In this document: positions 2,914 to 22,538 of the stretch, piece after piece
Layout of the letters: every line of letters begins with the position of its first letter
How positions within the stretch are numbered: position 1 is the first letter of the stretch
Source: Polaromonas sp.
Lineage (GTDB): Bacteria; Pseudomonadota; Gammaproteobacteria; Burkholderiales; Burkholderiaceae_C
Assembly: GCF_012927415.1 (NCBI RefSeq)
Contig: NZ_JABBPF010000015.1
Span: forward strand, 20,213 to 84,212
Direction of reading: 5' to 3'
Length of the DNA: 64,000 nucleotides
Position numbers and translations under genes: made by a program
Notes under the pieces: model-generated
What the model was told of the DNA's origin: nothing
Database searches by the model: none
The model's input: only the letters and a program-made list of their open reading frames with translations

Positions 2914-2980
2914 CGGCGAGTCGAAAGGAAAACCGCCTGAAAGTGGAGGGTGGGAGCTGCGCGGTTCCGCCGGACACCTA

Positions 2981-3000
2981 TACTGTGTATATGAACAGTG
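2981..3000 (+). promoter_or_regulatory. LexA SOS box (TACTGTGTATATGAACAGTG; CTGT-N8-ACAG) overlapping the umuD start codon
   Basis: Direct match to the CTGT-N8-ACAG consensus. The ATG at 2991 lies inside the box. Confidence 0.8.
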
Positions 3001-3431
3001 TTTTACAGTCCAGCGGCCCGGTGCCAGTTTCCGATACGCCACTGCTGGTCCAGTTGTTCCTCGGCCGCATTTGCGCCGGGTTTCCGTCTCCCGCAGAAGA
3101 CCTGGGCGCCCAGCGCATTGACCTGACCCGGGTGCTTATCACGCACCCCCAAGCCACCTACCTGTTGCGCGCCCGGGGCCACTCGATGGTCGAAGCAGGC
3201 ATTTTCGACAACGACATCCTGGTGGTGAACCGCGCATTGACCGCCCGGCATAAACAGATCGTCGTGGCCGTGGTGGACGGCGACTTCACCGTCAAGCAGC
3301 TGCACCTGCTGGCCGGGCGCATCAGGCTCAAGGCTGCCAACCCGACCTTTGCCGACATCGTGCCCAAGGAAGGCCAGCTGCTTGAAGTCTGGGGCGTGGT
3401 CACGGCCAGCATCAAGCAGTTTCCAGTCTAG
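2991..3431 (+). CDS. umuD: translesion polymerase V accessory subunit UmuD (S24 LexA-like peptidase)
   Basis: [10 protein letters not shown]…[12 protein letters not shown]…K in the typical UmuD arrangement. The start was chosen at the ATG within the SOS box; the ORF track starts at 2910. Confidence 0.85.
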
Positions 3432-3442
3432 GGGCTGATGCC

Positions 3443-4741
3443 ATGTTCGCGCTGGTGGACGGAAATAACTTTTATGTAAGCTGCGAGCGTGTCTTTCGCC
3501 CCAGCCTGGCGGGCCAACCGGTCGTGGTCCTCTCAAACAATGACGGCTGCGCCATCGCCAGGTCCAACGAAGCCAAGTCGCTGGGGATCGCCATGGGCGC
3601 GCCTTGGTTTGAGATCGAGCACCTGGCCCAGTCCGCCGGGCTGGTGGCCTTGTCGGCCAATTTTGCCCTGTACGGTGACATGAGCGACCGCATGATGAGC
3701 GTGGCTGCCGGAATGGGACCGGGGCAGGAAATCTACTCCATCGACGAGTCCTTCATTGACCTTGCGGGCGTGCGCGGCAGTCTGCAGGAGCGCGGCCACA
3801 AGGTGCGCGAACGCATCCTGCAGTGGGTCGGGATTCCTTGCGGCATCGGCATCGGCGCCACCAAGACCCTGGCCAAAATGGCCAACCACATTGCCAAGAC
3901 CGCCGAGCGTAAGCCCGGCAGTTATCCGGCATCCCTGGCACAGGTCTGCAACCTGGCGGAGCTGGCACCGGCCGCGCTGGACGAAGTGTTGGCCGCTACA
4001 GCCGTGGGCGAAGTGTGGGGTGTGGGCCAGCGAATTGCTACGCAGTTGAACGAGGCGGGCGTACAGACCGTGCTGGACCTAACCCGGCTGGACCCGGCGA
4101 CGGTTCGCCGGCGCTGGTCGGTGGTGCTGGAGCGCACCGTGCGCGAGTTGCAGGGCATGTCGTGCATTCCACTGGAACTGGCGCCTGCCAATAAGCAGGA
4201 GATTGCCTGTACCCGGTCTTTTGGCTACCCGGTGACAAGCCTGAATGACCTGACGGAAGCGATCACGGAGTTTGCCTGCCGGGGGGCGCACAAGCTGAGA
4301 AGGCAGGGGAGTCTGGCCAACATGGTGCTGGTCTTTATCCGAACCAGTCCCTTCCGGCATTCGCCCCAGTACAGCTGCTCGATGAGCATTCCGCTGCGCC
4401 GGCCCAGTGCGCACAGCGCCGTCATCGTTTCTGCTGCACTTGCGGGGTTGCGCGCAATTTACCGGCCGGGTTACCAGTTTGCCAAGGCCGGCGTGATGCT
4501 GCTGGAGCTGCAGGCGAACTTGGTGTTGCAGGACGAACTTGATTTGGAGCCAGATGAGGCACCCGAACAGGCCGGGCTCATGACCGCGCTGGATGCTCTA
4601 AATCAGCGCTATGGACGAGGCACGGTAAAGCTGGCCAGCGCTGGGCTGGGAGGTGACCGGCGTCTTTGGTCAATGAAGCAGGAACGACTTACGCCGGGGT
4701 ACACGACCTGCTGGGCGGATATGCCAGTGGTGCGGGCGTAG
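3443..4741 (+). CDS. umuC: Y-family DNA polymerase V catalytic subunit UmuC
   Basis: N-terminus [20 protein letters not shown]…[10 protein letters not shown] is typical of UmuC. Gene follows umuD. Confidence 0.9.
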
Positions 4742-6409: not shown

Positions 6410-8845
6410 CTATTCCTCGTCGTAATCAAACTTACGCAAAGTGATGGACTCATCGGCCCTCCGCTGCTCACTATCGCGCATGGACTCAAGCTGAGAGATG
6501 TACTTAGCAGCAAAGCTTCGGACGCGCTCGTTGGGATCTTGAAGCCAGTCGAGCACTTCACGGCGCTTCTCGTCATACGCCTCCGTCATCCCGTATTCAC
6601 CTGAGACGACGCCGGTATTCTGAAGAGCGATCTCGACTTCGGCGACGACTGGGCTGCTCCTGGGCAAACGCTTGATGAGTTCCTTTGCGACGGGTTGGAT
6701 GAAGGCCTCCCCGTTGTAGGCGCGCAGTACACCAGCCGCGAAGTCGAGCTCAATATCTCTACCTTCGCGAACTAGACGCACAAGTTCTGCTTGGAAGCCT
6801 TCAGAGAACTGTGGAAAGATCGCCTGTAGCAGTTTCGCGCCTCTGAACTCGAAGAGAGACGCGTCCTCGGCGTAGCAGTCCAACACTTTCTCGATCACCA
6901 TTTTTGGGTCGCTGGAGAGGCTGTCTTGCAACGTGTGGAACTGGTAGGGTAGTTCCTCGTACTCTCCGCCTGCCTTTTCGGCAAAGGCCGCAACGTGCTG
7001 CGCTGGCTCATACAGCCGATCGCAGAGGAACTCGACGACCACTCGAGGTTCGCGCTCCGCGATAGCGGCAAGCACATCCTCAGCTTGGTAGTCGATCTGC
7101 GGCAAGAGGCTTAGGTTTCTCAGTACCACGCGGCGCTCCTCGGGCGAGAACTCGGCAACCATTTCCGTCGCCTCTTTTCGGAACCAAATTTCTCTGACCC
7201 AGCCCGCATCGCCAAGCTCGGTAAGACGAGGCAAAGCTCGCAGGAACAACGCCTTCAGCTCGCCGCGTTCCTCTTCCTTTGCCGACCTGCCGATGGCCAC
7301 AGATGCGACTTGGCGCATGACAAAAGCGTCGCGAAGCGCGGTTGCCTTTTCTAACAGCCTTCCCAAGATGCCAGCATCGACATCTTTAGTCGACAAGAAA
7401 ACCTTTGCGCAGGCGTAGAGAAACGACGTCTCGTCTGCACGGGCCTCGGCGATCCACTTCAGTATGAGCGGAAGGAGCTCCTCCCGCTTCTCGCCGTCCC
7501 AGAGTCCGCGAAGTATCGGTATAAGGAATCTTGAGACCTGTTCGGACTCCTCGACGAGAAGATCCAACGCGAACTCTGGGTAGGTGGTCGCCACCTCCGC
7601 AAGGAATTCATAGAAGACAGGGAAGGTCGCTAGGTCATTGGACTCAGTCTGAGCAAATCTCAGAATCCTGCGACGCCATACATCGAACCCTTCGGCTGAA
7701 ACGCGAGCGGCAATGACACGGGCTTCCTTGCGCCTGGATTCTTGAGAACCCAGCGTGTAGGAGTCATCCCGCCTGTCCTTTGACCAATCTCCGAAGATTC
7801 CCTCAAAACCGACCAGCGTCTTGTAGATGGCGTACTCTCCACTGGAGTCGATGACCGCCTTCGTCTCAAGCGCCGCTGCTCTTACCCCTGCGGAGGCGCT
7901 GTGGAAATGAATCCAATAGCTGTCATGCTCAAGCTTCTGGACGACTTGCAGGTCTTCTTCCGCTTTGGCAATGTCACCAAAGAACCCGAGAACCTCCCTA
8001 GCATTTGCGGAGATCATGTCCGAAAACGCCTTGTCGACGACGCCTCTGCCATCCCCTCGCGCAGCCGCATTCATCGCTCTGATGACAGACAACTTATGCG
8101 ACTTGGTCTCAACGAGTTTGTAGAGCCTTTTGACGAGAGCGATGCTTCGCTTGCGGACCTCGACGACGCCTTGATCAGCCGGGACTACAGCGCGGGACAG
8201 AGTCACCGCCGTCGACGACCAGTTTGCCGACTCCATGGAGGGTGAAAGTAGGCCCTCAATTAGAGTAAGAACGCCACGCAGGTGGTTCCTCAGCTCCTCA
8301 TCAGTTTGCTTTTCAAGGGTGTCGATGACCAGAAGCTGAGGCATCGAGCCGATCCCTCTGCCACCGGGAGTGCCATCACCGAAGTACACGGAGATGTTGT
8401 ACTTGGCCAGGCCGCTCAGATCTGACGATGCCGTCTTGCGCACGGACTCTTCTTCATGTGTCGAAGCCCAAAGCAGGCTCTCGACAACGGCCGACGTCTC
8501 CAAATAACGCAGCGCATTGAGCAGGTCGATGCCTTTGGAAATCAAGCTGTAAGCGTTGCGGTACCGGGAAATAGCCGTTAGCTGCGCTCCATATTCATCC
8601 GAATGCATCAGAGGCCGAGTCTCAACAGTACGAATGAAGCTATCTGCGGCAGACACGACGTCCTTGCTTCGTCGGGACCCTACCGTGAGCAGCACATCCA
8701 AGCTGAACTCAAGGGCTTCGTACTCAGTCCTTTCAGCAAGGGTTGTAAATGCCTGCTCGCACGCACGCGCGATCGCTTCATCCGCTGCAGGGGTGTTTGA
8801 TTGAGCCAAGCGCCCAAGGACTTTGATACGCGTCGCGGAGTCCAC
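6410..8845 (-). CDS. large all-helical HEAT/ARM-like repeat protein, function unknown
   Basis: 811-aa ORF with a GTG start 4 nt after the stop of the PIN-like gene. HEAT-like segment DPNERVRSFAAKYI. No catalytic motif recognised. Confidence 0.6.
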   Translation of the reverse strand: MDSATRIKVLGRLAQSNTPAADEAIARACEQAFTTLAERTEYEALEFSLDVLLTVGSRRSKDVVSAADSFIRTVETRPLMHSDEYGAQLTAISRYRNAYSLISKGIDLLNALRYLETSAVVESLLWASTHEEESVRKTASSDLSGLAKYNISVYFGDGTPGGRGIGSMPQLLVIDTLEKQTDEELRNHLRGVLTLIEGLLSPSMESANWSSTAVTLSRAVVPADQGVVEVRKRSIALVKRLYKLVETKSHKLSVIRAMNAAARGDGRGVVDKAFSDMISANAREVLGFFGDIAKAEEDLQVVQKLEHDSYWIHFHSASAGVRAAALETKAVIDSSGEYAIYKTLVGFEGIFGDWSKDRRDDSYTLGSQESRRKEARVIAARVSAEGFDVWRRRILRFAQTESNDLATFPVFYEFLAEVATTYPEFALDLLVEESEQVSRFLIPILRGLWDGEKREELLPLILKWIAEARADETSFLYACAKVFLSTKDVDAGILGRLLEKATALRDAFVMRQVASVAIGRSAKEEERGELKALFLRALPRLTELGDAGWVREIWFRKEATEMVAEFSPEERRVVLRNLSLLPQIDYQAEDVLAAIAEREPRVVVEFLCDRLYEPAQHVAAFAEKAGGEYEELPYQFHTLQDSLSSDPKMVIEKVLDCYAEDASLFEFRGAKLLQAIFPQFSEGFQAELVRLVREGRDIELDFAAGVLRAYNGEAFIQPVAKELIKRLPRSSPVVAEVEIALQNTGVVSGEYGMTEAYDEKRREVLDWLQDPNERVRSFAAKYISQLESMRDSEQRRADESITLRKFDYDEE

Positions 8846-8849
8846 TGCG

Positions 8850-9914
8850 TCAGTCCCCGAAACCGTTGAGCGCGATCATGGCGGGCACTGCTTGTTGAAT
8901 CGCCTTGTTCAACAGATCGCCCGCTACAGCGAGATAGTTGTGGCCCGTATCCCGTATCAGGCCGGCCAACGCTAAACGCTCAAGGGCATTTCTAGCCGCA
9001 TCAGCGGCCACACCAGATTCCACAAGCATATTGATGACCGCCTGTTTGCCTGTCCGTTCCAAAAATCCAACGAATCCGAGCGCCTTGATGTCGATGAGAC
9101 CAAGATGTTTTGTACGGGCCGCCAGCAGGGCTTCCATTTCGCCGGGTTCGACAATTACTTGTTGAGGTGTAACCACGGCAGGGTCCAAGGGCAGCACTGG
9201 CACGATCCGCTCAGTCTTCATGTACGCCTGAACCAGAGGGTGTTCTCCCATAGGCATGTCATCGGGGCCCATGGCAGCGAGGTCAGAAAATCGAGTCTTC
9301 AGCGCCTCGACCAGAGGATTCAGTCCCATTTCTGCGGTGGTGCTGAAAGCCGTGAGCACCAATCCCCTGGATTGAGCCTCCTTCTTAAGACCAGTTGCAA
9401 GAGCGCCTTTTTCGAAAAATCCGACCTCGTCACGAGACACGAATAGCACCTCTGAGCCGCGTGGGAGTGTCAGCATGCTTTCCCAAATGAGGCAATCCTT
9501 ATATCCATGGTCCGATTTTGAAGTCGGGCGCCTATTCTCGATCGTGCGATCGGATGCAGCAACTTTTAGCTCAGGTGTCGTTGGAATGATATGGATGATG
9601 TCTTCGAGTTGCTCCAAGATCTCAAGAGCCTGGGCTTCCCCGAACTGAGATTTGGGAAGCAGCTCAAACAAGTCATAGCCACAAAGCGTCTTTAGTCTAT
9701 GCAGTTCTTTCACAGCCTTCGGGAGTACCTCGTCTCCGGAAAGCGTAAATTGCTTGATGTACTCCATGCGCAGGACTTCTGGCATCAGAAGTTTGGCTTT
9801 CTTGGCGCGCAGCATATCAATGAGTAGTGGCCCACCTTTCTTGCGAAAAAGGTGAGCATCGCGCGCCCCCACGTTCGTGTCACACAGGACGTAAAGTTGT
9901 CCGTTATCCGCCAT
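8850..9914 (-). CDS. PIN-like (DUF4935-type) nuclease-domain protein with a C-terminal winged-helix-like region
   Basis: Acidic-residue pattern VLCDTNV … MPEVLRMEY … KDCLIWES … FVSRDE. The C-terminus (GFLERTGKQAV…LERLALAGLIRDTG) looks wHTH-like. Confidence 0.6.
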   Translation of the reverse strand: MADNGQLYVLCDTNVGARDAHLFRKKGGPLLIDMLRAKKAKLLMPEVLRMEYIKQFTLSGDEVLPKAVKELHRLKTLCGYDLFELLPKSQFGEAQALEILEQLEDIIHIIPTTPELKVAASDRTIENRRPTSKSDHGYKDCLIWESMLTLPRGSEVLFVSRDEVGFFEKGALATGLKKEAQSRGLVLTAFSTTAEMGLNPLVEALKTRFSDLAAMGPDDMPMGEHPLVQAYMKTERIVPVLPLDPAVVTPQQVIVEPGEMEALLAARTKHLGLIDIKALGFVGFLERTGKQAVINMLVESGVAADAARNALERLALAGLIRDTGHNYLAVAGDLLNKAIQQAVPAMIALNGFGD

Positions 9915-10090: not shown

Positions 10091-10172
10091 GAGAAACTGG
10101 CCAAGTGATCGACCATGGCGCTAACAACGCGATTCGTCCGACTGTGGTGTTCTGCGGTGCTTCATGCTTCAA

Positions 10173-13100
10173 CTACACTGGGGTATACGGGCAGATTGTG
10201 GAGAAGTCGCAACGCGTGCAATGGTTGCCAACGGCTGGACTGTTGTTTCCGGTGGCGAAACGCAATGCGGCCTTGTATGACTTGGTCATCTCGATTGCCC
10301 TAGTACCGGGAATTGCGTCCGTCTTGTCCGAAAGCACATGGTGAAGTGAAATGGACGCAGGCCCGGGAAGGCTCAACCCCTGCAGCAACGGCTTCATGAT
10401 GGTCGTGTACTCACTGATGCCACGGCGAGAGAATCTTAGAATTGCATACTCGGTACCGCCGTCGATTCCCGGTATCCGAAAGCCCCAGGGCATCTGCAGC
10501 GTCAATCCGCCGATGACAGCCGACGCCTGCGCGAATGTGCCATCTCGCTTCTGCAGCGCGCGAACCTGAGACTTACCTCGTCTCAGCGCGAAAATCGCGT
10601 CCCTCCACAGGGAGGGATCTTCGAGCCGGGATGGCAACTTTCGGGCTATCCACTCATCTTCCAACGCGCTTTCTGGGGCGCTTTTGACCCTCGAGGAGAA
10701 CGCCTTGAGCGCATCCATCACCGCCCATCTGGCCCGCAGGGATGTGTCGATGTCAGATTCGCTCTGCAACTCCAAAACGCGGTTGTACCAGTACCGCAGC
10801 GAACAAGTCGCGTAGATGTAGAAATCCTCGAACGTAATTGCCGTCGGCTGCGCAAACGCCCCGCTCGAGACGCTCTTCGCCTTGGTTATTGTGGGGCCCG
10901 TGTACGTCTTGAGCTGGAACTTCTTGGGGTAGTGGTTTAGCTGAGGCGCAGTCGAGTTCCTGAACTTGGTGTCCTGGTAGAGGTAGAGGTGGCGCTTTGC
11001 TCTGGATACCGCGACGTAAAGCAAGTTGTTCCGTTCTACTGACGCCTCAAACTTATAGTCGTCCAGGCTGCTGCCAAGCACTTCCGGTGGGACGATGTCG
11101 AGAATTCCATCAGGGCTCCAACTCGGTGCTTGGCTTCCGTAGCTATCAGAGCTCACGAAGCCTACATGCACGGCCTCAAACTCTAGCCCCTTACTGCCAT
11201 GAACCGTCATAACTTGGACACCGTCGAGCACACCGGCTTCAGGGGGGAGTTCGCGCTGACCTTGGGAATCGCCAATTTTCTGGCGCAAGCGCTGGCGCAA
11301 GAGATACCGGGACAGTCGCGCCTCCTTCATTTCCCCATCACCGTTTCTCACGCTGTAGGCGAACTGCCAAAGAGCGATGCGGGTTACCCAAGCTCGGACG
11401 CTTGTGTCCGCGAAGGACGGGAGGCCGAGGTGCTGCTCCAGTAAGAGGTCGCAAATGAAGGTCCATGGATTAGAGCCATGCTGGAACTTTCCTATGAGCT
11501 TGCGGAGATTGGCCGTCACCTCAAGGCCGCGAGAGCTCATGCCAGACGGCGGGGAGTGAATCCATCGGCCTCGCTGGAAGGTCAAGTCGTTCTCGGCAGC
11601 GTTTAGGAGAACCTCCACGTCAGCCAGCGGCATGTTGAGGGCTGGAATGCCCGATAGGCCAATTAAGGCCTTTGGGCGACGCTCAACGAGAAGCTGAATG
11701 AGGCAGAGCAAGTGCTTCACCTCAGCCCGGGCGGTCAGGTCACCGATGTAGATAATGGGAATGCCCGCATGCTCAAGTAGTTCTGCGGCCCGCTCTACAT
11801 CGCTAGTCTTGCGGCAGAGGATGGCCTGGTGACCAAACGGCACCCCACTGGCCTGTAGTTCGCGAATGCGTTCGGAGACCGCTCCGAGAATTGCATCGCT
11901 CTCGCTGCTGCTGACAACGACGGGCATTACGCCCGATGCTCCATTGGTTGCGAAGACCTCATCCAGCTTCAAAGAACTTTGCAGAACATGCTCGCGGCCA
12001 ATCTGTTGAGTGAGGTCGACGACCTCTTGCGAGCTTCTTCTGTTGTACGTTAAAGGGTAGCGCTGGATTGCGGTCCCACCAGCGTGGGCCTTGAATTCGG
12101 TTTCAAACTTCAGTAGGCTTTTTAGCGAAGCACCCCGCCAGTGGTGGATGGCCTGCCGAACATCTCCAACTACCCAGATGTGCTTCTTGTAAGCCAACTG
12201 GCGTAGCAACTCGACCATGGCCCGCGTGACGTCCTGGTACTCGTCCACCAGAACGTACTCGAATCGATCGACTAGTTCTGCGAATGGCGTTCGGTCTTCT
12301 CGGAGGGCATATGCAGGCTTCGAGATGAGGTCTACGAAGTCAACAGTCTGGCGTTCCTTGAGCAGCGTCTCGTACAGTTCGAAAAGTGTGGCCACATCAA
12401 GGCGTTTCTGCTGAAGCTCCTCATCCTCGACCTTGTTCTCTTTAACGAAATACCTGTAGGCCGCTGGGGTAACTAACTCCTCTTTGAGTCGCGTGATTCC
12501 GCTGACAACAGGGCCAAGCCAGTCATATGGGTCTTCCACGCGCAAGAAGTGGGTGAGTTCCACTTGAGGTAAAGCCTTGACCATGGTGGTCATTGAGTTA
12601 ATAAAGTCTGAAACGTGAAGGTTTGAGTCAAAACTGAAATGCTGGTGATACTTTCTCAGGAACTCCAGCCCAAACGAATGGAAGGTGCCTGCCCAAATCG
12701 CGGAGGCATCCGTAATCCCCGCGTTACGCAGTCGCTCAACTAATTCGAACGCCGCCTTGTTGGTAAACGTGAGAACCAGAATCTGGCTCGGATGGACCTG
12801 CTTCTCTTCCACCAGGTACTTCACTCGGTGGATGAGAGTCGTCGTCTTACCAGTGCCTGGCCCGGCCACCACGTTAGCGGCTCGCTCTGGGGCCCTCGCT
12901 GCGGCGAGCTGGTCGGGACTCGGTTCGCTTAGTGGACTCGCCGTAACCGTCGCTTCAGGAAGCAGCAGCCCGTCGAGCATCTGCTGCCGGACGAACTCCA
13001 ATGGGATGCCCAGTTCCGTAGCAGTCTCTGCAGGCCCCTTACCGGCCATAGCAAATTGACGGGCGACATCTCGCGGTAGTAACAACTCGCGCGCGAACAA

Positions 13101-13505
13101 ATTTGCTTGGAGCTCCTGCCTCTCCCGTGCCCCGTAGGCTTCAACTTTGAGAACAGCTGGACTGCCAGCGCTGCCTAGCAGTGTTTTCAGGTAGGCAACG
13201 GTAGTTGCCGGCTTTGCTGCGTCAAGAAAGTAGTGCCCGAGTTCGTGTGCGACAAGGCCACAAAACTCAGCACTCCACGCATCAACTTCCGAGCTCACGT
13301 AAATGAACATTTGCTCCCGCTGGAGTACGGCAGTTCCACCGCCTAAGTCGGCGTAAGACGGCGGTACTTGCTCAATCGCAATGTTCAGGACGGATTCGAC
13401 TTTGTGTAAGAGGTCCTTTGCCGTAACGGCGGCGTGCGCAAGCGAGGGCTCCAGGTTGGCTCTGGTTGCATGGGCTTCATTTCGAGCGCGCTGGAACGGG
13501 TTCAT
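10173..13505 (-). CDS. fusion protein: ImmA/IrrE (M78) metallopeptidase + UvrD/PcrA-type SF1 helicase + C-terminal Cas4/AddB-like Cys4 nuclease-fold domain
   Basis: Peptidase motifs: AHELGHYF and ANLFARELLLP. Helicase motifs: AGPGTGKTT, VLVDEYQD, GDVRQAIHHWRGA, TVHGSKGLEFEAVHV, YVAVSRAKRHLYL. C-terminal cysteines: YATCSLRYWY … CTRCDFSTIC (C…CX2CX5C). Confidence 0.8.
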   Translation of the reverse strand: MNPFQRARNEAHATRANLEPSLAHAAVTAKDLLHKVESVLNIAIEQVPPSYADLGGGTAVLQREQMFIYVSSEVDAWSAEFCGLVAHELGHYFLDAAKPATTVAYLKTLLGSAGSPAVLKVEAYGARERQELQANLFARELLLPRDVARQFAMAGKGPAETATELGIPLEFVRQQMLDGLLLPEATVTASPLSEPSPDQLAAARAPERAANVVAGPGTGKTTTLIHRVKYLVEEKQVHPSQILVLTFTNKAAFELVERLRNAGITDASAIWAGTFHSFGLEFLRKYHQHFSFDSNLHVSDFINSMTTMVKALPQVELTHFLRVEDPYDWLGPVVSGITRLKEELVTPAAYRYFVKENKVEDEELQQKRLDVATLFELYETLLKERQTVDFVDLISKPAYALREDRTPFAELVDRFEYVLVDEYQDVTRAMVELLRQLAYKKHIWVVGDVRQAIHHWRGASLKSLLKFETEFKAHAGGTAIQRYPLTYNRRSSQEVVDLTQQIGREHVLQSSLKLDEVFATNGASGVMPVVVSSSESDAILGAVSERIRELQASGVPFGHQAILCRKTSDVERAAELLEHAGIPIIYIGDLTARAEVKHLLCLIQLLVERRPKALIGLSGIPALNMPLADVEVLLNAAENDLTFQRGRWIHSPPSGMSSRGLEVTANLRKLIGKFQHGSNPWTFICDLLLEQHLGLPSFADTSVRAWVTRIALWQFAYSVRNGDGEMKEARLSRYLLRQRLRQKIGDSQGQRELPPEAGVLDGVQVMTVHGSKGLEFEAVHVGFVSSDSYGSQAPSWSPDGILDIVPPEVLGSSLDDYKFEASVERNNLLYVAVSRAKRHLYLYQDTKFRNSTAPQLNHYPKKFQLKTYTGPTITKAKSVSSGAFAQPTAITFEDFYIYATCSLRYWYNRVLELQSESDIDTSLRARWAVMDALKAFSSRVKSAPESALEDEWIARKLPSRLEDPSLWRDAIFALRRGKSQVRALQKRDGTFAQASAVIGGLTLQMPWGFRIPGIDGGTEYAILRFSRRGISEYTTIMKPLLQGLSLPGPASISLHHVLSDKTDAIPGTRAIEMTKSYKAALRFATGNNSPAVGNHCTRCDFSTICPYTPV

Positions 13506-13511
13506 TGCGTC

Positions 13512-14516
13512 TCAGACTCCGAAGTCAAGAAGAGCCTTGGCGTCATCAGCAGGCAGATTTAGCGACTTCACTGCGGCGGTCCAAGTTGTGGGTGCTGTCG
13601 AGAGCATTGGCTTTCCAGCTTTCGCCTTAAACGCAGGCACCAATCTGCGGTCAAAACTGCCTCGGAATAATGTCGACAGCAGAGACTCAGGAGCCTCAAA
13701 GGCCCCCGCAAGTCTGGAGAGCAACTTCCTCGGAGCTCGTACATTTCCGACAAGGATGCTCGAGACAAGAGGGGTGGCAACAGGCTGAAGTTCAAGCTTC
13801 GAAACCAGATTGCGTATCGCGGCGCCCTTGCAACTGGAGACCCTTGGCTCGAGAGCGGCCAGCAGCTTCTGCATAGCAAGTCCGTGGGCTGCGCATAGCA
13901 CGGCTAGCTCGGAGACTGACTTCTCATACTCCTTGGCAGTTGACCGGAAGCGAACAGCATGGCCTGGGTCCAAACGAATCATTACCTGCTCAGTATTCGA
14001 ATCGTGCCACTCATGTAGTTCTTGACGAAGCGTTTCGAATAGCGAAGTCGAGCTCGCATAGAGCGACCTTGCAACGAAGTCTTCAAATCCAAAAACAACG
14101 AATCGTCGGCACACATCTGCAAAGCTCGTCGCTTCTGAGGACGCTATCGAATTGAGATGCTTCTTGAGGCTCAAAGGCAATGTAGCCCCGAGAGTCTGCT
14201 GCCTTGTCTTGGACAAAGAGCGCTCGGACGAGGGAGGATTGGTTTCGCTGGCGTTCATTCGAACAGTTGCTCTTAGCTCGGCGGTGGACGTGAGAAAGGA
14301 GGCAAGGTCAACGAGCGCCTGCCGAATCGCTTCGTTGGGAGAAGTGGCCGACACCTGACGCTTCCCAACGCCAGCAATTTCGTAGGAGACAGCTACACCT
14401 CCTTCAGCCTGTGGCTCCAGTTGGGCCGTTCGAAGAATGTTAGAGAATGTGTCTGGGAGCCGAGACAAGAGCACTTGCCCTTGATCAAGGGCAACCGGGT
14501 CGAGTGTGGTTTGCAT
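13512..14516 (-). CDS. hypothetical protein, translationally coupled to the peptidase-helicase fusion
   Basis: ORF runs 13512-14579. The start was preferred at ATG 14516 (GGAAGG RBS), which leaves an 89-bp divergent intergenic region. Its stop is 6 nt before the next ATG. Confidence 0.5.
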   Translation of the reverse strand: MQTTLDPVALDQGQVLLSRLPDTFSNILRTAQLEPQAEGGVAVSYEIAGVGKRQVSATSPNEAIRQALVDLASFLTSTAELRATVRMNASETNPPSSERSLSKTRQQTLGATLPLSLKKHLNSIASSEATSFADVCRRFVVFGFEDFVARSLYASSTSLFETLRQELHEWHDSNTEQVMIRLDPGHAVRFRSTAKEYEKSVSELAVLCAAHGLAMQKLLAALEPRVSSCKGAAIRNLVSKLELQPVATPLVSSILVGNVRAPRKLLSRLAGAFEAPESLLSTLFRGSFDRRLVPAFKAKAGKPMLSTAPTTWTAAVKSLNLPADDAKALLDFGV

Positions 14517-14605
14517 TTGCGCCTTCCATGACTGCGGGGCGTACGCGAGCCCCTTAACACTAGTATAGACAAATATCAAGAATGTATCAATCCCGCGGAG
14601 ATTTT

Positions 14606-15640
14606 ATGACTGCACCGAAGCTGGCAGCGGCCATCAGGGCCGCTGCCACAGCTTGGGAAAAGGCTACCACCTTTGACCAACGAACATACGCCCTGGCTTG
14701 CCCCGGTGAGCTCGCTGACATCCTGGGCAAGGCTGTCGAGGAAGCTCTGGAAAGCGCGGGCGAGGACCCGATGGCGATTCGTCAGGAAGTCATCGCGGCG
14801 CCCTTCGTTCTGCTTGCCGGAGTGTTCGAACCCGGTGAATTGCCTGAAACGCCAGAATGGTTCACTCCGGTTCCGGACGCTGGTGGCACTCAAATGGGAC
14901 GTGCTGCGGCGACTGCTGCGCATGGATTCCTTGGCATGGAGACCGTGTCATATGGGTCAGAGAATAGCGGTGAATTGTTCGTCAGCCTGACGGCGATTCC
15001 GGGCAAGGGTAAGTATGCGCGCAAGTCGCAGGGAGGGCTGCGCGGGCACACGGATGCGGTGAGCTTTCCGTTCAACGGGGAAACAGACGCTTCAAACTCG
15101 CGAATCGCACCTTCGCCGGACCTGGTGACTTTGGTCGGGCTGCGAAATCCGAGGGCCGTGCCGACGACGGTGATGGTGCTCGACGAGGCCTTAGACAAGC
15201 TGTCGCCTGAGGACGTCCACGAATTGAAGCAGGGGCAGTTTTCCATCGGGTCGCAAACCACTTTCCTAGAAGGTATGAGCGACATCCTGGGGGATGTGCA
15301 CACGGCCATTGATGAGCCGGTCCTCAAGGACGCGGCCTTCGGCACAATTGTTCGTTTCAGCCACTCCAATGTTTTCTCGACTGAGTCTGGCGGGGCGGCA
15401 GAGACGGCTGCTGAGAATTTTGCGAAGGCCTGCGGCGAAGTCGCCAAGCCCGTGGCTATCGAGCCCGGTGACGTCCTGCTCGTCAGCAATCGGCGTTGCC
15501 TGCACGGTCGCGGCGAGGTGGGTGACGATATCGGCGGGCATTCTAGATGGCTGCTGCGGACCTACGCGTTGGATACGTCGGAGCTGGATGACAGCCGGCG
15601 ACACCTCGGAGATCAGCCTCCTCACGTGCTTTTCCCTTAA
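14606..15640 (+). CDS. Fe(II)/2-oxoglutarate-dependent oxygenase, clavaminate-synthase/TauD-like
   Basis: HxD (LRGHTDAVS), distal His and Arg (NRRCLHGRGE … SRWLLRTY). The start was preferred at ATG 14606 (GGAG RBS); the ORF track starts at 14582. Confidence 0.6.
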   Translation: MTAPKLAAAIRAAATAWEKATTFDQRTYALACPGELADILGKAVEEALESAGEDPMAIRQEVIAAPFVLLAGVFEPGELPETPEWFTPVPDAGGTQMGRAAATAAHGFLGMETVSYGSENSGELFVSLTAIPGKGKYARKSQGGLRGHTDAVSFPFNGETDASNSRIAPSPDLVTLVGLRNPRAVPTTVMVLDEALDKLSPEDVHELKQGQFSIGSQTTFLEGMSDILGDVHTAIDEPVLKDAAFGTIVRFSHSNVFSTESGGAAETAAENFAKACGEVAKPVAIEPGDVLLVSNRRCLHGRGEVGDDIGGHSRWLLRTYALDTSELDDSRRHLGDQPPHVLFP

Positions 15641-15877: not shown

Positions 15878-16690
15878 TTACCCCGCATCCTGTTCAGCCA
15901 CGGCCGCTTCGGCACACGCCAGTTGGCGCACCATGATGTTTACGTCAGGCTCGTCGAATTGTCGGCCGCACGCATCGGCGGTAGTTTGGTGGTGGTGCCA
16001 GGCAGACGCAAATTCGTGCGATGCCAGGTGCAGCGCTCGCCCTGTAAGGTCGGCTGCAGCTTCTGCTTGCTCATGCTTTGCATCAGCGAGCTTTAACGCG
16101 CATTCGGCAAGGGCTTCCTGCGCATCCAGCAGTTCAGCCGCAGCTGCCTCTTGCGCCAGGGTCAGCGCGTCCAGTCGGTCACGGCTGACAGACGGCAGCG
16201 TGCCCGCCTTGCCAGCCTTTATCTGCGATAGCACTGCACTGGCCGCATCACTTTTAGCCCTGTCGAGCGCCAGCGCTTCCGTGGCCACCAGAATTTCGAT
16301 TTCGGCATGTATTGATTGGGCGATGCCTACGGCGTTTTGGGCAGCGTCGGCCAGCGGTGCCAATTCTGCAATTGCTGTTTGTGCCTGTGATGCTCGGACA
16401 TCTGCGTTCAACATGCGGTTGAGGTGGTCGATGTCACGGGTGACGCAAGCTATTTCCCGCTCGGCGTCGATACGGTGCTGCCGGGCCTGTTGCTGCTCGG
16501 AGTTCAGCGCTAACAGCTGCCGCTCTGCAGCGCCCAATGCTTGAATCGGATAATTTACTGCCTTAAAAGTATCAACTTGGGCAGCGGTGCGGCCTTCACG
16601 CTTAATGCTTCCGGGCAGGTCCAAGTGCTTGATCTGTTGTTGGAGAGTGACGATTTCTGCCTGGATAGTTGGGTGCTGTGAATTTTTCAT
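15878..16690 (-). CDS. hypothetical Ala/Gln-rich coiled-coil protein
   Basis: 270-aa ORF with an AAGGA RBS. Heptad-like A/Q/E/L-rich sequence throughout. Confidence 0.55.
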   Translation of the reverse strand: MKNSQHPTIQAEIVTLQQQIKHLDLPGSIKREGRTAAQVDTFKAVNYPIQALGAAERQLLALNSEQQQARQHRIDAEREIACVTRDIDHLNRMLNADVRASQAQTAIAELAPLADAAQNAVGIAQSIHAEIEILVATEALALDRAKSDAASAVLSQIKAGKAGTLPSVSRDRLDALTLAQEAAAAELLDAQEALAECALKLADAKHEQAEAAADLTGRALHLASHEFASAWHHHQTTADACGRQFDEPDVNIMVRQLACAEAAVAEQDAG

Positions 16691-16705: not shown

Positions 16706-16927
16706 TTAGAAAAGGTCGCGTGAATCGGCAGCTGATCCAGAGCTTAGCCAAGCCTGAAGCTCTGATATTCGAATGAACGTCAAATTCCCTATGTGGATTG
16801 ACCGAAAGGGAATCTGGCCCGTGGACAGGGCTGCTCGAAAGCTTTCGGCAGTGAGGCCAGCCATGCGGGCGGCAGCAGCCAGGCGAAGTAGCCCGCTGGC
16901 TGGAATTTGAGAGTGATCGATTTGCAT
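16706..16927 (-). CDS. AlpA/excisionase-family HTH DNA-binding protein
   Basis: 73 aa. LLRLAAAARMAGLTAESFRAAL…IPF…FIRISELQAWL resembles the HTH_17/AlpA pattern. Confidence 0.55.
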   Translation of the reverse strand: MQIDHSQIPASGLLRLAAAARMAGLTAESFRAALSTGQIPFRSIHIGNLTFIRISELQAWLSSGSAADSRDLF

Positions 16928-17791: not shown

Positions 17792-20128
17792 TCAGAAAAG
17801 TGAAGGCGGCAAGAAGCCGCGCTTTTTCACACCGTGGACCCGCTTGTTCACATAGGTATAACCTTGTCGTATAAGCGACTTTTTGACCCTTGCCAGTTGT
17901 TGTTTCGCTATTTGCGAATTGGGCAAGCACAATGCCTCCCTCAGCACCTCTCCCGCAGTCAAAAACTCGCGCTCAAACGGCGTGCGGTTTCCTGCAAAGT
18001 CGGGTTCGCGAAGCCATTTATGGATGACGTTATCCCACTCATCATGCTCGGCAAAGGTCGCGTGCTCGTCTTCTGCCAGGCGTTCTGCTTGTTGGTGAAG
18101 CACGCCATGTGCTTTAAATTGTTCCCGCGCTTCTGCCCATAATTGATCTCTGTCGCGCGCGATAGCGTCGGGGTCACACATCCCACATTGAAACGGTAGC
18201 CATCTACGGTTGCCGGTTTCATCGGCCAGAAAATCATCTTTATTGGTTGTGCCAAAGAACATGTTCCTGCGCCTGTATCGCACGGTCCATTCCTTATATT
18301 TGGGTGTCCATTCCTCATGTGATCGGGTGATGAAGGATTTGATGTATTCGGCATCTCGCGAACTGAGCCCCTTTAATTCGTCGAGCTCGATAATCAATTT
18401 CCCGCGCATGATGCGGGCCAGATCGTCGTCTCGGCTGCTAAGGTCAATCGCGGTGTAAAAATCAGGTGCTGGCACCAGCGCAGCCACCGCCGACGACTTC
18501 CGCATACCCTGCGCTCCAACGGCAATAGGCACCATGTCGCACTTGATCCCGGGCTGCAGCACACGCCCCGCCGCCGCGGTCCAGAAGTACAGGCCCACAG
18601 CGCACGCGTACGGGGTGTCGGCTACGCAGAAATAGGTCTGTAGGAACCGTTCAATCCTCGGTTTTCCGTCCCACTGCGCCCTGTCAAGCCAATGCTGAGC
18701 AGAGTCAAACGAATTCGCTTCGGCGACATACGCGACAACATCGCGGATTAATTCCTTGCTGATGCTCTGAAATCTGCCACGCTCCAGGCGAAGGCACAAC
18801 TCTGTGTAGTCTGTGTCCTTGAGTGATCTCCAACCCTCGGTGCCGTTTTCAGCGAGCATCGTTTCATCTCTGAACTCGTCATGCCGTAATTGATAACCGC
18901 ATATATCTGGACGGCTGAGTGCTTGAAGGATGTTGTCTTTTGACGCCTTGATATCGCCCGTAGTCGTATTGCGTTGGAATGCAGGCCAGGCTTCTGTCTC
19001 GTTAGGTGCAGGCAGGTTGTCGGGCAAACCGTCTGCTGTCGGTGCGTTCCATTCAGGATTCAATTTGTACGCCATGTCGTACAGCGTGCCGCGCGTTATG
19101 CGTTTTCCTTCCTTGTTGTCTCGGCATCTATCCCACGTCGCCCGAGTGGGGCGCCTACCGGCGTTTACGGGGTTCTGGCCTTCCCATTCTTTGAAAAGGT
19201 CGAAAGCTTCTTCATCGCCTCCACTGGCCTCATGTGTGGCAAACAGCAAATTGCGCCATGTATCGTAATTTGTTGCGGCGCTTGTGGTGCTTAGTTCGGT
19301 TGCCAGTGGCGCCACGGCCGCCAACGCTCGTGCGATTTTTTCGATAGGGTCAGGTGGTGCGAGTTCGGCCATCTCAAGTTCATGGACTGGTTGTGCCAAT
19401 TGCGGGACGCCATCCGACACCTGCCAGGCCATGCGCGGTGCTGACTCAGGAATCGCGGCTGCCAGGCATAGGTCGAATTCGTCTACCAGCGGCTCGCTTT
19501 TGTTCCAAAATGGCAAGATTGCCATGTTCCCATTGCTCCCAGGGCCAGAAGCATTTAAGCGTTCTTGCTTGGGGAAAATCTCAACTTGGCCAGCAGCTAT
19601 GCCGCCTGTGCCTTCGCTGAACCCTTCAATAGCAAGTACCGTGACCAATGTGCGCCGAACGCTGTACGCGTCCTGCAGCGTGTCCCATATCATCCAAAGA
19701 TGAATACCTGCGCCACCGGACGATCGGAATGCGGTAGGGCGCAAACACGTATTCTTCAGGCCAGCGCAGAGCCGTTCGGCGGTTAGCAGCATGTCATCGA
19801 ATGTGGTTTCGCCGTTGTGGCTGTCCAGGTCCAGAAGTGCAATCTTCGTGGTGGACTGGCCGGGCGACATTAGCCCAATACCGCAACCCCTGCGACCGTC
19901 GAGATGCGCGTCGATATGCTTTTCCGTAAGCGGGTAATCGGCCCATTTCGGGATAGCGCCATGATCTTTACACGCACATCGATCCTGTCGGGCGCGCTCG
20001 GTAAGGGCCCGCAGTAATTCACGTTTATGCTTTTTCGAGAAAGTCTCCCGACTATTCAATAAATTCCCTTTATCGTCTGTCGAGTTCGTGTTTTCGTCGG
20101 CAGACGCTGCTTCAGTGAGTGGAGTCAC
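17792..20128 (-). CDS. replication protein: AEP prim-pol + PriCT-like + VirE-type P-loop domain
   Basis: ALLDLDSH and SSGGAGIHLW (AEP motifs). NYDTWRNLLFATHEASGG (PriCT-like). GAQGMRKSS Walker A and IIELDEL Walker B in a VirE-like C-terminus. GTG start with AGGAAA RBS. Confidence 0.8.
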   Translation of the reverse strand: MTPLTEAASADENTNSTDDKGNLLNSRETFSKKHKRELLRALTERARQDRCACKDHGAIPKWADYPLTEKHIDAHLDGRRGCGIGLMSPGQSTTKIALLDLDSHNGETTFDDMLLTAERLCAGLKNTCLRPTAFRSSGGAGIHLWMIWDTLQDAYSVRRTLVTVLAIEGFSEGTGGIAAGQVEIFPKQERLNASGPGSNGNMAILPFWNKSEPLVDEFDLCLAAAIPESAPRMAWQVSDGVPQLAQPVHELEMAELAPPDPIEKIARALAAVAPLATELSTTSAATNYDTWRNLLFATHEASGGDEEAFDLFKEWEGQNPVNAGRRPTRATWDRCRDNKEGKRITRGTLYDMAYKLNPEWNAPTADGLPDNLPAPNETEAWPAFQRNTTTGDIKASKDNILQALSRPDICGYQLRHDEFRDETMLAENGTEGWRSLKDTDYTELCLRLERGRFQSISKELIRDVVAYVAEANSFDSAQHWLDRAQWDGKPRIERFLQTYFCVADTPYACAVGLYFWTAAAGRVLQPGIKCDMVPIAVGAQGMRKSSAVAALVPAPDFYTAIDLSSRDDDLARIMRGKLIIELDELKGLSSRDAEYIKSFITRSHEEWTPKYKEWTVRYRRRNMFFGTTNKDDFLADETGNRRWLPFQCGMCDPDAIARDRDQLWAEAREQFKAHGVLHQQAERLAEDEHATFAEHDEWDNVIHKWLREPDFAGNRTPFEREFLTAGEVLREALCLPNSQIAKQQLARVKKSLIRQGYTYVNKRVHGVKKRGFLPPSLF

Positions 20129-20565: not shown

Positions 20566-20979
20566 CTACTTTTTAGATAGGCGGTCTATCCGCTTACGCG
20601 CTGTATTGTCATCAACTGCATCATGCAGTGACCCGTCGATACGTGCCGTATGGATTGCACCGGCTTTTGTGTAACCCTCAAAACCTTGAAGTACTGTGGC
20701 AACTTCTGCAAATGCACGGTGATGCTCGTACTTTCCACTTAGACCCGCTGCCCTTAAAACCGCATCAGCCCGGCGTGCAGTGGGGGCAGTTTTGCCTCCC
20801 GCTGCCAGTAGGCACCGTGCAAGTTCTCGCATGAACAGCATGTCATCGGTGTCCGTCCCGCCGTCCGCCACACGCTGCAGTACTGTCTCTACTACATTGC
20901 GGTTCGGTGTGTGGTCGGCTTGACGGTCTTGGTGCCAAAGCGCGTCCAAGGCTTTTACAACTTCTTCATCATCGATCAT
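20566..20979 (-). CDS. hypothetical protein
   Basis: 137-aa ORF overlapping the integrase stop by 4 nt. Confidence 0.45.
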   Translation of the reverse strand: MIDDEEVVKALDALWHQDRQADHTPNRNVVETVLQRVADGGTDTDDMLFMRELARCLLAAGGKTAPTARRADAVLRAAGLSGKYEHHRAFAEVATVLQGFEGYTKAGAIHTARIDGSLHDAVDDNTARKRIDRLSKK

Positions 20980-22307
20980 GCTGCCACCACGCGAATCGCA
21001 CCGGCTAGTGCGTTGGCATCGAACACAATCCCAGCCTGTTCCAGAATCCAGGCTTCAATCTTTTCGTGGTGAACCCGAAGCAGTTCCAGCGGACGCACGG
21101 TGTAATGCTTCTCGGCAGTGGCGCTGGGTTTGTGCCCTTGAATTTGTGCCACCACGCCAACGGGAACTTCAAGCCACTCGGTCAGGCTCTTGAAGGAACG
21201 GCGAAGGCCGTGCAAAGTCAGCCCTTCAAGGCCAGCAGCCTTGCACGCGCGGGTGTGTGGGTTGTTTGGCTCAGTGAGGCAGCCGGTTGCGCTCGTGTGG
21301 CTTGGAAACACCCATTCATTGCGGCGGGGCAGGGCAGACAGTAGGAGCAGCATGTATGGCGTTGCAGGTATCTCGCGGGTTCCGTCTACCTTGTCCCGGA
21401 TGCTGATTCCCTTCCATTGGGTGTTCACATCCTTCCAGCGCAGCGCCAAAACTTCCCCGGGCCTCGCGCCAGTGAGCAACATCATTTGCAGGCAGGCGGC
21501 AATTACCGGGTTCTGTATCTGTTGCACGACGGCAAACCATGCGGTCAATTGCCCACGCTGGAGAACGTCTGATTTAGTCCCGGCCTTGCCCAGCGCTTCG
21601 CGGGCTTTCTTGGTTTTGGCTGGGTTTTTTGCAGGCAGCAGTCCAGCGTACGCAGGCTGTTCACCGCACCACGTCAAGAATACGGTCAGCAGTCGCCATG
21701 CAAGCCGGGCAGATGATGGACGGGCTTTGCCTTCAATAGCAGCCCAGCGTTCGATTGTGGCTTGATCAAGGTCTTTTAGTCGTAGCGGCATCAGGCCAGC
21801 CAGCGGCCCCGGCTTTGTCAGATGCTTGCCGCCTCCACGACGGCCAGATGGCAGTCCCCCAGCTTTGGCCTTGTCCATATGGTCGCGGAAGTGCAGGTCA
21901 CCCCAAAACTGTCGGCGCTCTTCAATGTATGTGGCCCAAACCTCGCCTACGGTCAGGGCTGATACCTTGTCGGCTTCCACTTTGGCGGCGGCTGCGGCCT
22001 GCTTAGTTGTCGTCGCTACTACAGCATCGCGCTTTAGGTCGCGGGGGTCTTTACCCTCATCTATCAGGCGTTGAAGCTCTCGGGTCTTTTCTTGAGCTTG
22101 AGGAATGCTCCAAGCAGAGGTGGAACCTATGGTGATACGGATGCTTTTTTGCTTGAACTCTCCTTGAAACACATAGGCAGGTTTCCCGGCCGGCGTTGCT
22201 CTAAGCCCCAGCCCCGGCGCTGTCACGTCCCACAGAAAAATCTGAGGCTTATCAGTCAGACATTTGAACGCGGCAACCCGGCCAGCGGTGAATGCAATCT
22301 TTGCCAT
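20976..22307 (-). CDS. int: tyrosine site-specific integrase (P4-type, DUF4102 N-terminal arm-binding domain)
   Basis: N-terminus LWDVTAPGLGLRATPAGKPAYVFQ… is DUF4102-like. C-terminal catalytic region TGARPGE…HGLRRSF…GHKPSATAEKHY. Confidence 0.9.
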   Translation of the reverse strand: MAKIAFTAGRVAAFKCLTDKPQIFLWDVTAPGLGLRATPAGKPAYVFQGEFKQKSIRITIGSTSAWSIPQAQEKTRELQRLIDEGKDPRDLKRDAVVATTTKQAAAAAKVEADKVSALTVGEVWATYIEERRQFWGDLHFRDHMDKAKAGGLPSGRRGGGKHLTKPGPLAGLMPLRLKDLDQATIERWAAIEGKARPSSARLAWRLLTVFLTWCGEQPAYAGLLPAKNPAKTKKAREALGKAGTKSDVLQRGQLTAWFAVVQQIQNPVIAACLQMMLLTGARPGEVLALRWKDVNTQWKGISIRDKVDGTREIPATPYMLLLLSALPRRNEWVFPSHTSATGCLTEPNNPHTRACKAAGLEGLTLHGLRRSFKSLTEWLEVPVGVVAQIQGHKPSATAEKHYTVRPLELLRVHHEKIEAWILEQAGIVFDANALAGAIRVVAA

Positions 22308-22486: not shown

Positions 22487-22538
22487 AGGATTGTGATTCC
22501 TGTTGTCGTGGGTTCGAGCCCCATCAGCCACCCCAAGT
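22487..22538 (+). repeat. attR: displaced native 3' part of tRNA-His (52-bp direct repeat)
   Basis: Identical to 96-147. Confidence 0.9.

Follow-up and report, generated by a model that had tools for sequence, protein, structure and literature searches.

A mobile cassette of an M78 peptidase-helicase fusion, a putative DNA-binding partner and a divergent dioxygenase in a Polaromonas island, with relatives beside Bil and Bub operons

A locus in the genome of Polaromonas sp. raises the question of what a protein in which a zinc peptidase is fused to a DNA helicase might do, and with which neighbouring genes it acts. The locus lies within a stretch of 64,000 nucleotides (RefSeq assembly GCF_012927415.1, contig NZ_JABBPF010000015.1, positions 20,213 to 84,212 of the forward strand), termed the window, from the first nucleotide of which all coordinates are counted unless another locus is named. 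The original prediction, made from the sequence alone, described two coupled genes, encoding a 334-aa protein and a 1110-aa fusion of an ImmA/IrrE-type (M78) peptidase, a UvrD-like helicase and a Cas4-like domain, and proposed them as a candidate defence module. The two open reading frames (ORFs) and the 6-nt junction between them are both confirmed in the sequence. The conserved mobile unit, however, comprises three genes: the helicase gene, that of its partner, and one encoding a dioxygenase transcribed divergently from the pair. The locus is interpreted here as a mobile three-gene cassette acting as a DNA-triggered proteolytic switch over the dioxygenase, a reading to which we would give a probability of about 0.5.

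The 1110-aa protein is encoded at 10173-13505 on the minus strand (assigned from the ORF, Pfam and homologues), and its translation contains all the motif strings quoted originally. The architecture of M78, UvrD and Cas4/AddB-like domains is borne out by Pfam together with AlphaFold2 (AF2) modelling and Foldseek, and is conserved across homologues. More than 120 full-length homologues were found, with 53-85% identity, so the three-domain architecture is far beyond chance. The M78 (ImmA/IrrE-type) zinc-peptidase domain (residues 65-175; 12981-13313, minus strand; Pfam PF06114) includes the HELGH motif at residues 87-91. Peptidase_M78 matches the whole protein with E = 4e-8 (33.5 bits) and residues 1-199 alone with E = 1.2e-9 (38.4 bits), against a Pfam cut-off of 22 bits in both cases, and a PHROG metallo-protease profile matches the same region. 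H87, E88 and H91 of the zinc site are found in 83 of 84 family members, while E131 is present in all 84 and would be a metal ligand. The UvrD/PcrA/Rep-like superfamily 1 (SF1) helicase core follows (residues 197-844; 10974-12917, minus strand), matching the Pfam families UvrD-helicase at residues 197-472 (E = 2e-59) and UvrD_C at 761-842. Its Walker A, Walker B and other SF1 motifs are intact, with K220, T221, D421, E422 and Q424 conserved in 84/84 sequences. The NCBIfam models for PcrA, Rep and UvrD score 128-193 bits, five- to nine-fold under their equivalog cut-offs of 911-1168, so the protein is no housekeeping orthologue. There is no Pfam match to a GAF or helix-turn-helix (HTH) domain in the protein, and residues 197-1110 comprise the helicase and the Cas4-like domain.

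The C-terminal Cas4/AddB-like domain (10176-10841, minus strand) has a PD-(D/E)xK fold according to AF2 and Foldseek. Sequence and profile searches of the PDB gave no meaningful match for the C-terminal domain profile or for the M78 domain, and fold comparison alone succeeded. PDDEXK_1 of Pfam matches the isolated C-terminal 248 aa weakly (E = 1.5e-4; 22.3 bits, where the cut-off is 22). For residues 851-1110 the AF2 model (mean predicted local distance difference test, pLDDT, 85; predicted template-modelling score, pTM, 0.77) is matched by Foldseek to the Cas4-family nuclease ACE1 (E = 1.3e-6) and Cas4 SSO0001 (1.8e-5), and further to EXO5, AdnA, AddB, RecC and Dna2, with template-modelling (TM) scores of just 0.4-0.5. 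No variation was seen among 25 close homologues at the four cysteines arranged as C...CX2CX5C (C901, C1096, C1099 and C1105), and across the wider family 83-84 of 84 sequences have them; from this arrangement an iron-sulphur (Fe-S) cluster is predicted. The suspicion that the nuclease is degenerate proves well founded for the clade of the window protein. At the canonical D...(D/E)xK positions each of the 13 sequences in that clade has PWGF and (L/M/I)-R-F-S-R, and PWGF and RFSR are invariant among close homologues. Distant relatives retain PD(D/E) and K/R in the nuclease motifs, with the motif III acid in 4 of 71. The loss of catalytic residues holds for the window's clade, and inactivity of the whole family is not claimed.

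The partner protein is encoded immediately upstream on the same strand. The ORF at 13512-14579 (minus strand) would specify 355 aa from a TTG codon, and 334 aa from the ATG at 14516. The TTG start was rejected, as homologues and the NCBI record begin at the ATG and the TTG falls within the promoter. The partner gene is therefore 13512-14516 and not the longer interval to 14579 first given, and the 334-aa version is identical to an NCBI entry named 'hypothetical protein [Polaromonas sp.]'. The spacer between the TGA of the partner and the ATG of the helicase gene is 6 nt long (13506-13511, minus strand; GGAGTC-TGA-GACGCA-ATG), and a Shine-Dalgarno-like GGAG lies 11 nt 5' of the helicase ATG, within the 3' end of the partner gene. 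The sequence of this junction suggests translational coupling. A terminator-like hairpin is found 3' of the helicase stop codon by consensus scan only (10098-10115, minus strand).

The partner has no match in Pfam, PADLOC, NCBIfam or PHROG. It was studied through 69 homologues, an AF2 model, Foldseek and hhalign, and its family is small: an exhaustive search with a hidden Markov model recovered 129 representative clusters only, among 1.84 billion proteins. In the AF2 model (pLDDT 78.6) an N-terminal alpha/beta domain is followed by two consecutive beta-alpha-alpha units and a helical HTH-like stretch, after which come a disordered loop at residues 287-307 and two terminal helices. The best Foldseek matches are chains of TraY from the F-plasmid relaxosome (E = 0.05-0.1, probability 1.0, target TM-score 0.6-0.67) and single-chain Arc. 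TraY and single-chain Arc are tandem ribbon-helix-helix (RHH) DNA binders, and on the basis of the model the partner is probably a TraY-like tandem RHH DNA binder as well. An invariant motif, FKAxxGKP (residues 296-303), lies inside the disordered loop, where the pLDDT is below 50; within it K297 and P303 are conserved family-wide.

The third gene (14606-15640, plus strand; alternative ATG at 14582) was missed originally, yet every close context examined has it together with the pair. It encodes a 344-aa protein assigned by profiles as a clavaminate-synthase-like Fe(II)/2-oxoglutarate (2OG) dioxygenase of TauD/VioC/OrfP-like type. The pair itself is conserved and tightly coupled across genomes, as had been anticipated. 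Contexts were sampled as contigs with helicase homologues, to which tblastn of the loci added a Pseudomonadota metagenome-assembled genome (MAG) and two Pseudomonas, while a search seeded with the dioxygenase led to Burkholderia pseudomallei and a metagenome contig, both of which carry the trio. The dioxygenase gene accompanies the helicase/partner pair in nine of nine distinct contexts outside the window; the trio has unrelated flanks in these, which comprise Cellvibrio, Ralstonia, Comamonas, an Alcanivoracaceae MAG and the five just mentioned. In the first four genomes a partner of about 340 aa is encoded 1-5 nt upstream of the helicase gene, and a divergent TauD-like gene of about 344 aa lies 61-97 bp past the partner. 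The flanks include Tn7-like transposition genes, tyrosine integrases, type I restriction-modification genes with GmrSD, an OLD-family nuclease, HipA, AbiEi and Shedu SduA_C, all of them typical neighbours of defence cargo; in the metagenome contig the trio adjoins a Shedu (SduA_C) gene and an integrase. The interval 10173-14605, proposed earlier for cloning, would cut off the dioxygenase gene, and cloning of the module must include this third gene. In B. pseudomallei (locus L088, 1-2100) the cassette adjoins genes with Ada_Zn_binding, Oxygenase-NA and Ogt-like (DNA_binding_1) domains, a neighbourhood that may be a coincidence of the insertion site or a hint of a link to DNA damage.

The dioxygenase matches TauD of Pfam weakly, and on NCBIfam it scores far under the equivalog cut-offs (GntD 47.9 versus 345, VioC 42.1 versus 418.6, CS1 41.9 versus 450). 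Comparison of its profile with the PDB gives OrfP (3.6e-15), VioC (4e-13), CmnC (9e-13), the lysine hydroxylase KDO1 (1.8e-12) and AsnO (7e-11), with which it shares the HxD/E...H...R iron/2OG site (profile matches of E about 1e-11 to 4e-15). In 22 sequences H148 and H300 of the facial triad and the 2OG-binding R314 are invariant, and D150 is nearly so (at least 90%); the triad aligns to HTE...HGR...RWL of OrfP. The family is small and tight, with 282 matches, the best 120 of which are all about 344 aa. By its profile matches the protein belongs to the free-amino-acid hydroxylase branch that includes OrfP, VioC, CmnC, KDO1 and AsnO, and not to the AlkB-like nucleic-acid oxygenases. Unlike the VioC/OrfP-type enzymes, it is encoded outside a biosynthetic gene cluster, and stands beside the helicase pair in every context inspected. 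No PADLOC or PHROG model matches it.

Between the annotated starts of the partner and the dioxygenase is an 89-bp divergent control region (14517-14605), analysed by promoter scan and alignment. Two sigma70-like promoters were found by consensus scan in this region, back-to-back and overlapping, against 0.1 expected. That predicted for the partner/helicase operon reads TTGATA-17-TATACT (14590 to 14562, minus strand; 10/12 matches), and that for the dioxygenase reads TTAACA-18-AAGAAT (14554 to 14583, plus strand; 9/12 matches). Overlapping both is an 18-bp direct repeat, TTGATACATTCTTGATAT (14573-14590, minus strand), with two copies of TTGATA 11 bp apart; this TTGATA-N5-TTGATA element overlaps the -35 box of the partner/helicase promoter. 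In the alignment of eight independent intergenic regions the element TTGATAYATTNTTGATAY is almost invariant, and its two TTGATA copies are one helical turn apart. The pattern occurs exactly once per dioxygenase-type locus, save in the two most divergent (L011 and L016), and has a single match in the 64-kb window against 0.02 expected. A search for an alternative operator in L011, L016 and L009/L010 gave nothing convincing. The repeat is also found 57-74 bp upstream of two further genes, a truncated copy of the partner (P0326) and a stand-alone homologue of its N-terminal, RHH module (P0330). Such co-inheritance of the repeat with the RHH module is as expected of a repressor and its operator, and the TTGATA repeat is therefore a candidate operator of the partner.

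The two additional loci have features of their own. P0326 (243 aa; L093 15-819, also L094) is cut short beside IS66, and P0330 (242 aa; L095 6927-7729, also L096) has uncharacterised neighbours, with helicase and dioxygenase genes absent nearby. The 5' leader of the partner/helicase operon contains a GC-rich palindrome, GGGGC-N8-GCCCC (14536-14553), identified from sequence and alignment. It occupies the same position with varying sequence in six of the eight aligned loci, and could be a second operator or an RNA hairpin.

What the pair might do becomes clearer from its wider family, which was surveyed in one genome per GTDB species. The best matches, all M78-helicase fusions, provided 80 loci, and with seven earlier loci the total is 87. 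Classed by downstream cassette, 46 of these are of Bub type, 25 carry BilABCD and ten the dioxygenase, and none was detected in six, of which at least two lie on contigs that end shortly after the helicase gene. The Bil-type loci contain BilA, BilB, BilC and BilD (PADLOC E = 2e-59 to 1e-139), and the Bub-type loci, which are Type I or II, contain Multi_ubiq, DUF6791-ThiF or JAB-ThiF, and DUF6527. The downstream cassette is on the same strand as the helicase gene in 67 of 69 loci. Immediately before the helicase gene (median gap 1 nt) a protein of about 200 aa, termed c1, is encoded in 71/87 loci, and 64 loci have a sigma70-region-4/LuxR-like gene (c2, about 268 aa) that overlaps c1 by 4 nt. 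Alignment by hhalign shows homology between partner residues 155-332 and c1 over its entire length (98.6% probability, E = 5.6e-16). The only residues common to the two families are the lysine and proline of [FY]K[AS]xxKP, in the predicted disordered loop. The 18-bp repeat is absent from every Bil/Bub-type locus scanned.

Examples in which the M78-UvrD-Cas4-like gene, with the sigma70-region-4/LuxR-like gene and c1 before it, lies directly upstream of Bil or Bub are L018 (8368-15723), L017 (8569-16333) and L092 (Xanthomonas pXCV183), and such loci span L009-L087. In a neighbour-joining tree of the helicases the cassette type tracks clades, with several switches, and two Bil-type loci nest within the dioxygenase-type. 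One helicase-protease family is thus attached to the dioxygenase, to BilABCD and to Bub, as would be expected of a sensor or regulator and not of an effector: the helicase protein is the front end that all have in common, and the output (dioxygenase, Bil or Bub) is exchangeable. In the island of the window, no Bil or Bub genes (ubiquitin-like protein, E2, E1, JAB or DUF6527) are found among the scanned proteins, and the dioxygenase takes their place. The fusion occurs on 42 plasmids, where it is annotated just as 'UvrD-helicase domain-containing protein', and was found neither in the phage records of INPHARED nor among the best 80 matches in IMG/VR. A phage origin was considered and rejected, the matches in INPHARED and the best 80 in IMG/VR being generic UvrD helicases that align from residue ~146-216 on. 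A pair of genes encoding an AAA ATPase and an S8-family peptidase was noted a few kb upstream of some Bil-type helicase loci (L092 877-4138, L014 4736-8129 and L033 6205-8424), and the S8 peptidase cluster occurs in nine loci.

In the proposed mechanism the tandem RHH of the partner would bind TTGATA-N5-TTGATA and keep both its own operon and the divergent dioxygenase gene at a low level. The 1110-aa protein would be the sensor, its UvrD-type motor and catalytically dead Fe-S Cas4/AddB-like domain engaging abnormal DNA, for which free ends or single-stranded DNA (ssDNA), arising from phage DNA or from damage, are the candidate triggers. This engagement would license the M78 peptidase to cut the partner, probably in the FKAxxGKP loop before the last two helices. 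Repression would then be lifted and the TauD/VioC-like hydroxylase made as the output, where it would probably hydroxylate either a basic or polar amino acid in the free state or a side chain in a protein. The partner had been put forward originally as the peptidase substrate, and cleavage of this kind would fit the presence of a homologous module before the helicase gene in most of the 87 loci.

The regulatory logic is of a known kind. CapP and IrrE are M78 peptidases that bind ssDNA between the peptidase and GAF domains and then cleave CapH and DdrO respectively (10.64898/2026.05.16.725639; PMC10904395; PMC12828697). CapH and CapP are the HTH repressor and ssDNA-activated M78 peptidase associated with CBASS, Bil and Bub (Lau et al. 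2022, 10.1101/2022.04.27.489752; 10.64898/2026.05.16.725639), and CapH+CapP, CapW and CapK+CapS sit at the equivalent position by Bub and Bil operons (10.1101/2024.11.21.623953; PMC13373217; 10.64898/2026.05.16.725639; 10.1101/2023.09.26.559546). The present pair resembles CapH+CapP in placing an M78 zinc peptidase next to a small protein that binds DNA (here putatively), both at the promoter of an immune or stress operon that can be induced, in having relatives that fill the same upstream slot of Bil and Bub operons, and in the likely nature of the trigger, a DNA signal. Like those systems the pair is encoded at the promoter of its proposed target, across the 89-bp region with its divergent promoters, or, in the relatives, 83 nt (median) upstream of BilA or BubA. 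The differences are substantial. While CapP has three domains (peptidase, HTH and GAF), the 1110-aa protein is a fusion of peptidase, SF1 helicase and Cas4-like Fe-S domain lacking GAF. CapH has an XRE-type HTH, whereas the partner is not XRE by Pfam and comprises a predicted tandem RHH and a c1 module. The present pair is also co-transcribed and divergent from the output gene, and the output is a dioxygenase.

A more distant comparison is with IrrE/PprI and DdrO of Deinococcus, and with ImmA and ImmR of ICEBs1 and prophages. These share the PF06114 peptidase family and the proposed logic, in which a damage-stimulated cut would part the DNA-binding part of the repressor from its C-terminal part. 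They control chromosomal repair regulons or the induction of mobile elements, however, contain neither a motor nor an Fe-S domain, and act on another substrate family.

Several points weigh against the switch over the dioxygenase. The RHH assignment derives from a model of moderate quality (pLDDT 78.6) and from weak Foldseek E-values (0.05-0.1), with no Pfam RHH match, and the partner has no Pfam XRE HTH, unlike CapH, DdrO and ImmR. Conservation of the TTGATA repeat could be mere shared promoter sequence. The Bil/Bub-type relatives carry the extra sigma70-region-4/LuxR-like gene and retain PD(D/E) and K/R in the C-terminal domain, so that the ancestral protein may have been an active nuclease with its own role, and the Bil/Bub-linked members may still cut DNA. 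The dioxygenase might act in DNA repair, or on the other two proteins, and not as an effector. Bub operons are moreover without demonstrated phage defence (10.1101/2024.11.21.623953).

The strongest competing explanation, unlikely in our estimation, is that the helicase-protease is itself the effector, a motor like that of Gabija GajB, Nhi or AddAB; the partner would be its inhibitor or antitoxin, or a phage-sensing adaptor removed by the M78 domain, and the dioxygenase an accessory. The genomic contexts resemble defence islands, and in such contexts UvrD-family helicases are found in Gabija and Nhi as well. The helicase core scores well on the PADLOC GajB and RTasHel models (E about 1e-53). 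These matches are however confined to the generic UvrD core (residues ~194-601), GajB has neither the peptidase nor the Fe-S domain, and a GajA/OLD partner is not in the conserved unit; GajA was not found among the four neighbour proteins scanned (the PIN_12 and HEAT-like proteins described below, the partner and the dioxygenase). The SF1 UvrD-like motor of the protein precedes a C-terminal RecB-family domain, which is also the architecture of AddA, AdnB and RecB, and is shared with the AddAB, AdnAB and RecBCD complexes. The four-cysteine arrangement resembles that of AddB, Cas4 and Dna2, and the fold matches AdnA, AddB and RecC. In contrast with these complexes the protein is a single polypeptide that has no partner subunit and carries an extra peptidase at its N-terminus; its occurrence is mobile and sporadic, not that of a housekeeping enzyme. 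The retention of nuclease motif residues in distant relatives would suit an effector, yet each of the 13 sequences from the window's clade lacks the two acidic residues and the lysine, a loss that parallels the dead nuclease-like domain of RecC. The family is furthermore tied to three unrelated enzyme cassettes, including complete BilABCD, which is hard to square with a killing role. The effector function assigned to the helicase-nuclease by the original prediction is for these reasons unlikely here, and the evidence points to a regulatory role.

A second explanation, which we consider doubtful, is a mobile module for DNA-damage repair or tolerance, in which the helicase would process lesions or breaks, the 2OG dioxygenase would carry out AlkB-like repair or modification of damaged substrates, and the M78 protein and partner would provide damage-inducible control only. 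IrrE and DdrO do govern repair genes (PMC12828697; PMC10904395). The helicase motifs are intact, umuD and umuC genes are also present in the island of the window, and the cassette of B. pseudomallei adjoins genes of Ada/Ogt and Oxygenase-NA type. Against this, the dioxygenase lies in the free-amino-acid hydroxylase branch and is not AlkB-like, and the NCBIfam scores of the helicase are far under the UvrD/PcrA/Rep equivalog cut-offs. The distribution is sporadic and borne by mobile elements with different flanks each time, and the sister helicases are tied to Bil immune operons.

That the pair is an ImmA/ImmR-type life-cycle switch, which on sensing damage or helper-phage DNA would cut a repressor and induce the island, with the dioxygenase as unrelated cargo, is very improbable: ImmA/ImmR modules do control the induction of integrative and conjugative elements and prophages (10.64898/2026.05.16.725639; 10.1101/2022.05.11.491493), and the window island has integrase, AlpA-like HTH and primase-VapE genes, but the cassette is cargo of very different elements (Tn7-like transposons, several unrelated integrase islands and a chromosome region), is always with the dioxygenase and never adjoining the integrase or excisionase, has its operator-like repeat in the window once only, at its own promoter, and encodes a fusion absent from the phage records and best viral matches searched.

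The locus corresponds to no named system, as had been supposed. PADLOC, NCBIfam and PHROGs gave just generic helicase or peptidase matches for the large protein, those of PADLOC being GajB/UvrD models on the helicase core, and none for the partner or dioxygenase. In the literature searchable by full text there was no description of the M78-UvrD fusion, the partner, the dioxygenase cassette or the link to Bil and Bub, although an earlier description is possible. Some fusions could be included among the 'CapP' counts of the Bub paper, which were compiled by eye on the basis of Pfam M78 annotation (10.1101/2024.11.21.623953). As far as could be determined, what is new is the architecture of the sensor, the family to which the partner belongs and the dioxygenase as output.

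To our knowledge three classes of DNA-damage-responsive regulator of immune operons have been worked out so far (CapW, CapH+CapP, as well as CapK+CapS). A wider proposal, tentative and rather less than probable, is that the M78-UvrD-Cas4-like protein and c1 represent a large class, so far undescribed, of proteolytic sensors driven by a motor, which would recognise DNA ends or ssDNA and induce BilABCD, Bub or the dioxygenase as exchangeable outputs, the dioxygenase being a new inducible anti-phage or stress effector. This bears on how bacterial immune operons are switched on. A helicase-coupled M78 protease, if confirmed, would be an ATP-driven sensor able to tell DNA ends and replication intermediates from passively bound ssDNA. 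BilABCD has been reported to defend against phage, and the attachment of the sensor to BilABCD and Bub provides a testable handle on when these systems fire. We know of no precedent for a VioC/OrfP-like hydroxylase as a defence or stress effector, and the substrate of the dioxygenase could reveal new effector chemistry, whether amino-acid or protein hydroxylation or depletion of a metabolite.

The satellite-like setting described originally is that of a P4-like island of about 22.4 kb integrated at a tRNA-His gene (69-144). The last 25 nt of this gene (120-144) are repeated exactly at 22511-22535, giving 25-bp direct repeats around an island that includes the cassette, an integrase gene (20976-22307), an archaeo-eukaryotic primase (AEP)/PriCT/VapE gene (17792-20128) and an AlpA-like HTH_17 gene (16706-16927). 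Other cargo on the plus strand comprises a NucA-type non-specific endonuclease (1981-2913), an S24 UmuD-like peptidase (2910-3431) and a UmuC-like Y-family polymerase (3443-4741). Directly downstream of the helicase gene is that of a 354-aa PIN_12 protein (8850-9914, minus strand; Pfam E = 1e-13, with a weak DUF5817_CT match), followed after 4 nt by the gene for an 811-aa protein (6410-8845, minus strand) that has faint HEAT-repeat matches and none in PADLOC, NCBIfam or PHROG. The PIN_12/HEAT-like pair has the appearance of another coupled cargo module of two genes. Between the genes for the dioxygenase and the AlpA-like protein lies the gene for a 270-aa Ala/Gln-rich protein with no Pfam match (15878-16690, minus strand), which is probably a coiled coil; the long ORF antisense to it is probably an artefact of composition.

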